DNA from: Escherichia coli
GTDB lineage: Bacteria > Pseudomonadota > Gammaproteobacteria > Enterobacterales > Enterobacteriaceae
Assembly: GCF_003334255.1 (NCBI RefSeq)
Contig: NZ_QOWU01000001.1
Length of the DNA: 64,000 bases
Direction: 5' to 3' (one strand)
Both the position numbers and the translations under genes were made by a program. The notes beneath the pieces were generated by a model. That model did no database searches, was not told the origin of the DNA, and worked only from the letters and a program-made list of their open reading frames with translations. Of the stretch, positions 29,992 through 30,065 are shown in pieces. Every line of letters starts with the position of its first letter. Position 1 is the stretch's first letter.

Positions 29992-29994
29992 TGA

Positions 29995-30010
29995 CTGTAT
30001 AAAACCACAG
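29995..30010 (+). promoter_or_regulatory. LexA (SOS) box of polB/dinA
   Basis: CTGTATAAAACCACAG fits CTGT-N8-ACAG; 56 bp upstream of the polB GTG start. Confidence 0.85.
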
Positions 30011-30022
30011 CCAATCAAACGA

Positions 30023-30051
30023 AACCAGGCTATACTCAAGCCTGGTTTTTT
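30023..30051 (+). terminator. araBAD intrinsic terminator
   Basis: AACCAGGC (30023-30030) / GCCTGGTT (30040-30047) then T-run to 30051; the loop contains TATACT. Confidence 0.8.
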
Positions 30052-30065
30052 GATGGATTTTCAGC

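Follow-up and report, generated by a model that had tools for sequence, protein, structure and literature searches.

The window analysed here, a stretch of 64,000 nucleotides of Escherichia coli DNA (contig NZ_QOWU01000001.1), contains the junction between two co-oriented genes, araD and polB. Of 5,426 complete E. coli genomes searched with positions 29600-30500, 5,396 gave a match covering 80% or more of this segment, with flanks annotated as araD and polB, and positions 29960-30100 were 100% identical to K-12 MG1655, where the region lies in reverse orientation (b0061, araD; b0060, polB). MG1655 coordinates were obtained by subtracting the window position from 95846. Both the list of open reading frames and the annotation place araD, the last gene of the araBAD operon and coding for L-ribulose-5-phosphate 4-epimerase, at 29296..29991 on the plus strand, ending in a TAA codon at 29989-29991. 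DNA polymerase II is encoded by polB at 30066..32417 on the same strand, a 783-aa ORF that starts with a GTG codon at 30066, leaving a gap of 74 bp between the two genes.

A preliminary description, made from the sequence alone, had placed in this gap a LexA box, a terminator hairpin for araBAD and, in the loop of the hairpin, a TATACT hexamer serving polB. Our own reading of the sequence bore out all its coordinates, including that of the GTG codon. From the evidence presented below, we estimate at about 85% the probability that the 74-bp spacer consists of two functional modules sharing sequence, namely an intrinsic terminator for araBAD and a LexA-repressed sigma-70 promoter for polB.

The LexA operator and the start of polB transcription

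The LexA (SOS) operator was assigned to 29993..30012, without strand, from its sequence, rarity and conservation. Its 16-mer core, CTGTATAAAACCACAG, occupies 29995-30010 and begins 3 nt past the araD stop codon. The general pattern CTGT-N8-ACAG was found three times in the 64 kb, compared with 0.55 expected occurrences, and an A/T-rich centre is present only in the polB copy. The narrower pattern CTGTATAWAWNNNCAG produced one exact match in the window, with around 0.14 matches expected when one mismatch is allowed. The polB box departs from the 20-mer LexA consensus at seven positions by count, and a search with that consensus, allowing up to three mismatches, did not match it. The additional LexA-like matches at 20474-20489, 61419-61434 and 57474-57489, two of them exact with GC-rich centres and one near the A/T-rich form, are most likely due to chance.

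The literature describes polB, also called dinA, as a LexA-regulated, damage-inducible gene; fusions to the E. coli polB promoter respond to UV, defining a 'middle' SOS promoter, and polB of Salmonella is likewise an SOS gene with a LexA box. The box proposed for 29995-30010 is present, lies upstream of a gene known to be regulated by LexA and, as detailed below, is retained throughout the enterobacterial loci compared.

Two 5'-end datasets place the transcription start site (TSS) of polB at 30043 on the plus strand (genome 65803, reverse strand), resulting in a 5'UTR of 23 nt. The SMRT-Cappable-seq data (Yan et al. 2018, PMC6131387, Supplementary Data 2) contain a single TSS for the operon of b0060, at 65803 on the reverse strand. 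Likewise, Kim et al. 2012 (PMC3415461) assign 65803(-) to polB, with a 23-nt 5'UTR and an upstream sequence ending in ...GGCTATACTCAAGCCT, although the read support for this position is low (third-column value of 2). The mapped polB TSS of Klebsiella pneumoniae follows ...AAACCAGGCTATAATCAGGCCTG, placing it in the homologous 3' arm, one base beyond the E. coli position.

The TATACT hexamer (30031..30036, plus strand) occupies positions -12..-7, with the TSS exactly 7 nt downstream. Its first T closes the stem of the hairpin, the rest of the hexamer is in the loop, and the TSS at 30043 falls inside the 3' arm. The two independent datasets, together with the homologous start in Klebsiella, agree with the earlier proposal that TATACT is the -10 element of polB. 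That proposal would be contradicted by a start far from the hexamer; in the public 5'-end data the start is close to it, and the claim stands. With the -10 element in the loop and the TSS in the 3' arm, the polB promoter does sit inside the araBAD terminator, as had been suggested.

The -35 element is much less evident. At a spacing of 16-18 nt from the -10, the best candidate is CAGCCA (30008..30013, plus strand), an inferred weak element that matches TTGACA at three of six positions with a 17-nt spacer and shares bases with the right half of the LexA box, itself located at -48..-33 from the mapped TSS. Conservation around this candidate is poor except for the bases belonging to the LexA box. 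Owing to the poor -35, a scan with a generic sigma-70 consensus did not call a promoter in this region, and the polB promoter presumably relies on its -10.

Kim et al. 2012 also recorded a minor, low-count 5' end inside araD and assigned it to polB; it lies at window position 29900, which is 166 nt ahead of the GTG codon and corresponds to genome position 65946 on the reverse strand. The operon table of SMRT-Cappable-seq does not list this 5' end, and a promoter inside araD would be at best minor. Our search of full-text literature returned no usable account of araD-polB read-through or of the polB TSS.

The polB transcript begins with UGGUUUUUUG (30043-30052), and the U tract of the terminator thereby serves polB as initially transcribed sequence. 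In this it resembles the start regions with T runs at codBA and upp, which show UTP-sensitive reiterative transcription; a similar effect at polB would be speculative.

The araBAD terminator hairpin

The hairpin begins 30 nt past the araD TAA codon and is co-oriented with the gene. According to the predicted fold, its 5' arm, GAAACCAGGCT, lies at 30021..30031 and its 3' arm, AGCCTGGTTTT, at 30039..30049, both on the plus strand; the 5' arm is at the same time the promoter-proximal spacer of the polB promoter (-22..-12). A CCAGGC/GCCUGG core is extended by A-U pairs and closed by the 7-nt loop ATACTCA. The araBAD terminator U tract, TTTTTT, follows at 30046..30051 (plus strand), corresponding to +4..+9 of the polB transcript.

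Folding of the 74-nt spacer yielded -24 kcal/mol, compared with -10.8 ± 2.7 for shuffled sequences (z = -4.9), none of the 200 shuffles being as good, and the hairpin by itself reached -15.7 kcal/mol. A terminator scan called the hairpin on the minus strand but missed it on the plus strand; in our reading, the maximal stem takes up three of the six T, and the tail criterion then fails. Because its GC core is short and its loop has 7 nt, the hairpin is probably leaky. A search of 29700-30400 against Rfam gave no family match even at E ≤ 1.

Term-seq data from cells grown without arabinose (Adams et al. 2021) contained no araD 3' end. From the position of the U tract, we would expect araBAD 3' ends at about 30051-30053, at +9 to +11 of the polB transcript and some 8-10 nt past its start site. 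The same study detected an RNA 3' end within polB at window position 32294 (genome 63552, reverse strand), around 120 nt before the stop codon.

Across 54 distinct sequences with araD adjacent, the core stem was invariant and there was one clear compensatory pair. Such invariance is expected, because these bases are constrained by two functions, and covariation is accordingly of little help in judging the stem.

Two further features of the hairpin region were noted. Each arm contains a Dcm site, CCAGG at 30025-30029 and CCTGG at 30041-30045, and the two sites flank the -10 and cover the TSS. Masking of the polB ribosome-binding site by an extended stem in the read-through RNA was considered and rejected: the mean unpaired probability of 30052-30068 was 0.45 in the read-through RNA, compared with 0.32 in the promoter-initiated RNA.

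Conservation of the two modules among Enterobacteriaceae

One scan of representative genomes provided 80 polB loci from Enterobacteriaceae, 79 of them with upstream sequence. The LexA box, as CTGTAYAWAA-N3-CAG, was found in all 79 and was located 20 nt before the -10 in 77. The -10 hexamer was TATAAT in 68 loci and TATACT in the remaining 11. The composite of LexA box, 20 nt and TAYAMT occurred exactly once in 82 of the 86 loci fetched.

In all loci araD lies upstream of polB, but at varying distances. Spacing between araD and the box could be measured in 77 loci: in 55 of them the stop codon and the box are 0-140 nt apart, and in 20 the distance exceeds 600 nt, so that the adjacent arrangement is kept in 55 of 77, covering many genera. 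Loci with araD more than 600 nt away include those of Salmonella, several Citrobacter, Phytobacter, Pseudocitrobacter and some Kosakonia. In the first four of these groups, and in others, an insert of 0.7-1.5 kb separates araD from the LexA box of polB, as for instance at 1420-2428 of locus L009, 1792-2424 of L018 and 1756-2418 of L035 (examples from a subset within L006-L047). These inserts contain either divergent small ORFs without an NCBIfam match or one co-directional gene, DUF218/ElyC-like and about 210 aa long.

We compared conservation in these two groups (araD adjacent, n = 55; araD more than 600 nt away, n = 20) after anchoring the sequences on the -10. The LexA box (0.93 and 0.85, respectively), the 5' arm (0.87 and 0.89) and the -10 (0.98 and 0.97) were conserved in both, whereas conservation of the 3' arm fell from 0.93 with araD adjacent to 0.65 with araD distant. 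Median hairpin stability changed from -14.8 to -5.4 kcal/mol (Mann-Whitney p = 3e-7, a statistic that ignores shared ancestry), and hairpins at or below -10 kcal/mol were present in 53 of the 55 loci with adjacent araD, compared with 7 of the 20 others. The region of the U tract was T-rich in all araD-adjacent loci. Salmonella has lost the hairpin and kept the polB LexA box. Decay of the polB-proximal hairpin often goes together with a new strong hairpin and T tract 35-50 nt after the araD stop codon, with stabilities of -18 to -21 kcal/mol for L023, L035/44/47 and L039.

The simplest reading of these sequence comparisons is that the promoter and operator are needed everywhere, and the 3' arm and U tract only as a terminator of incoming transcription. 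Since the 3' arm is conserved only with araD adjacent and the promoter is kept throughout, the comparison lends modest support to promoter and terminator being separable modules that share sequence, not a demonstrated coupling device. It also favours the identification of the hairpin as the araBAD terminator, made earlier from the sequence alone, which is supported both by its shape and by the dependence of 3' arm conservation on the adjacency of araD.

We also tried a stricter rule, by which the hairpin would be kept whenever a co-directional gene ends at the LexA box, and rejected it: the rule fits loci L018, L021, L024 and L066 and fails for L027, L039, L043 and L046. When the abutting gene is the co-directional DUF218-like gene, the hairpin is kept in L018, L021 and L066 and lost in L027, L039, L043 and L046.

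The 5' arm shows a constraint that termination does not account for. The segment AAACCAGG(C/T), at window positions 30022-30030 (about -21..-13 of the promoter), is conserved at around 0.89 even in loci without the hairpin, and the 10 nt between the 5' arm and the LexA box are conserved at only 0.53. Retention of the 5' arm with loss of the hairpin was noted in L009, L014, L023, L027, L035, L039, L043, L044, L046 and L047; inspection by eye of the hairpin-less loci revealed no general alternative 3' pairing partner for the arm. Judging from its pattern of conservation, a function of AAACCAGG(C/T) at the DNA level is likely. The constraint may reflect an effect of the spacer or of an extended -10, a sigma-S-like GCTATACT context or a second regulator; a G-14/C-13 context is typical of sigma-S promoters. 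Its persistence without the hairpin hints at an unrecognised promoter determinant or a second regulator.

Two loci deserve separate mention. In Siccibacter turicensis (L081, around 2430-2500), only 10 nt separate the LexA box from the -10, a spacing shorter by one helical turn than that of the other loci, and the hairpin stem, CCAGC/GCTGG, is shorter by one base pair on both sides. Locus L054 (CACSKA010000010.1), labelled as Chryseobacterium sp. 18061, shows a typical enterobacterial araD-polB arrangement, with araD 95% and PolB 80% identical to those of E. coli, and the assembly is probably mislabelled or contaminated.

A model for the shared spacer and its alternatives

In the mechanism that we propose, LexA bound to CTGTATAAAACCACAG would cover the weak -35 and keep RNA polymerase out, presumably by steric exclusion. 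Upon cleavage of LexA, polymerase would use the strong -10 and start at 30043. The araBAD RNA, for its part, would fold GAAACCAGGCU against AGCCUGGUUUU ahead of the U tract, and most polymerases would be released around 8-10 nt past the polB start, a release point predicted from the fold. Transcripts of polB would start within the 3' arm and lack the 5' arm; the terminator therefore could not form in them, and polB would not terminate its own transcription. Conversely, each araBAD polymerase would have to travel over the LexA operator and the entire promoter of polB to reach its termination point, and occlusion of the promoter or displacement of LexA would therefore be possible. Any read-through past the terminator would yield polB mRNA independent of LexA, and an interplay between araBAD read-through and SOS control is plausible. 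Stringer et al. (J Bacteriol 196:660) reportedly treated the same hairpin in 2014 as the araBAD terminator and found leaky termination, with read-through of the araD terminator raising polB RNA, and hence polB expression, in arabinose; that work is said to concern AraC-dependent expression, and not the promoter-in-terminator geometry or its evolution.

The overlap could itself be a selected coupling, with araBAD transcription displacing LexA or occluding the polB promoter and also feeding read-through, such that arabinose and SOS jointly set the level of Pol II. The geometry, which sends every araBAD polymerase over operator and promoter, speaks for it, as do the retention of the arrangement in 55 of 77 loci from many genera, a hairpin that is probably leaky with its short GC core and 7-nt loop, and the increase in polB expression via read-through that Stringer et al. 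reportedly saw in arabinose. We nevertheless consider a selected coupling unlikely, because promoter and operator persist and the 3' arm decays once araD has moved away, a pattern of two independent functions; Pol II is not known to us to have any physiological connection with arabinose. It is also rather doubtful that the shared sequence does anything beyond saving space, be it that arabinose-driven transcription tunes SOS control of Pol II, through LexA displacement, promoter occlusion or read-through, or that the U tract imposes a UTP-sensitive reiterative or abortive initiation on polB.

Two further alternatives each deny one of the two modules. According to one, the hairpin does not function in termination, the repeat being kept for promoter DNA only and araBAD ending elsewhere or by Rho; this view would fit the 0.89 conservation of the 5' arm where the hairpin is gone, the almost complete lack of covariation, the Term-seq data without an araD 3' end from cells grown without arabinose and the scan that made no call on the plus strand. 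This is very improbable in view of the canonical shape of the hairpin (GC-rich core, 7-nt loop, six U, 30 nt after the stop codon, z = -4.9) and of a 3' arm and T tract whose conservation is specific to loci where araD or some other co-directional gene adjoins; moreover, the 3' arm decays where araD has gained a new terminator of its own, and the polB promoter of Salmonella works without it. The other, to which we give hardly any credence, is that TATACT is not the main -10 and that polB is transcribed mainly from a promoter inside araD or by araBAD read-through alone, as the minor 5' end at 65946 (window 29900) of Kim et al. 2012 and the weak -35 could suggest. It conflicts with the single polB operon TSS at 65803 in SMRT-Cappable-seq, with the agreement of Kim et al. 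2012 and the Klebsiella start with that position, and with the near-invariant hexamer and its spacing from the LexA box; furthermore, a transcript from 29900 must pass the terminator. Our preferred reading thus remains that of a terminator and a LexA-repressed promoter that share one sequence.

The arrangement is real and ordinary, and its parts, the polB SOS promoter and the araBAD terminator, were already known; it is not a new kind of element. It instead illustrates dense packing of signals, in which one 31-nt palindrome serves as an RNA stop signal for araBAD and as a DNA start signal for polB, the start site being placed so that polB mRNA would escape the terminator. LexA control of polB was reportedly described in 1990 by Iwasaki et al. 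(J Bacteriol 172:6268) and by Bonner et al. (PNAS 87:7663); the promoter and LexA box of polB (dinA) of those studies, which compilations of SOS boxes also include, are the same locus and the same operator as here, without difference in substance, except that the TSS is placed here from later genome-wide data. As in tandem transcriptional interference, or promoter occlusion, the upstream polymerases would cross a downstream promoter and its repressor site; in contrast to such systems, the araBAD terminator is inside the downstream promoter and not before it, and interference at polB is a prediction from this geometry. The polB operator resembles those of the SOS genes recA, uvrA, sulA and umuDC in having a CTGT-N8-ACAG palindrome over a promoter hexamer, where repression would be steric, but it differs from them in being far from the 20-mer consensus and in covering the -35 instead of the -10 or the start. 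Such a position over the -35 would be consistent with modest induction. What our comparison adds is small new support for the arrangement, with the promoter half kept everywhere and the terminator half only where araD abuts.

In practical terms, constructs or deletions affecting the end of araD, such as the common ara deletions and those in P_BAD strains, can alter polB expression, and induction with arabinose could raise Pol II independently of SOS. Within E. coli, leaving one loop position aside, the 31-nt hairpin core was exact in 5,324 of the 5,426 complete genomes. That position, 30035, is polymorphic, resulting in TATACT, as in K-12, in 2,927 genomes and in the consensus TATAAT in 2,397. 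The sole common polymorphism of the hairpin core therefore alters the strength of the -10 and leaves the stem intact, and basal and induced levels of Pol II may differ between E. coli lineages. Additionally, in E. coli EC42405 (locus L086, NZ_CP043414.1 4250915-4251138), the DNA upstream of the polB promoter is different and araD is not adjacent, the hairpin core is intact, and the LexA box has the form CTGTACAAAATATCAG known from Salmonella and Citrobacter, which suggests recombination or insertion at the araD-polB junction.
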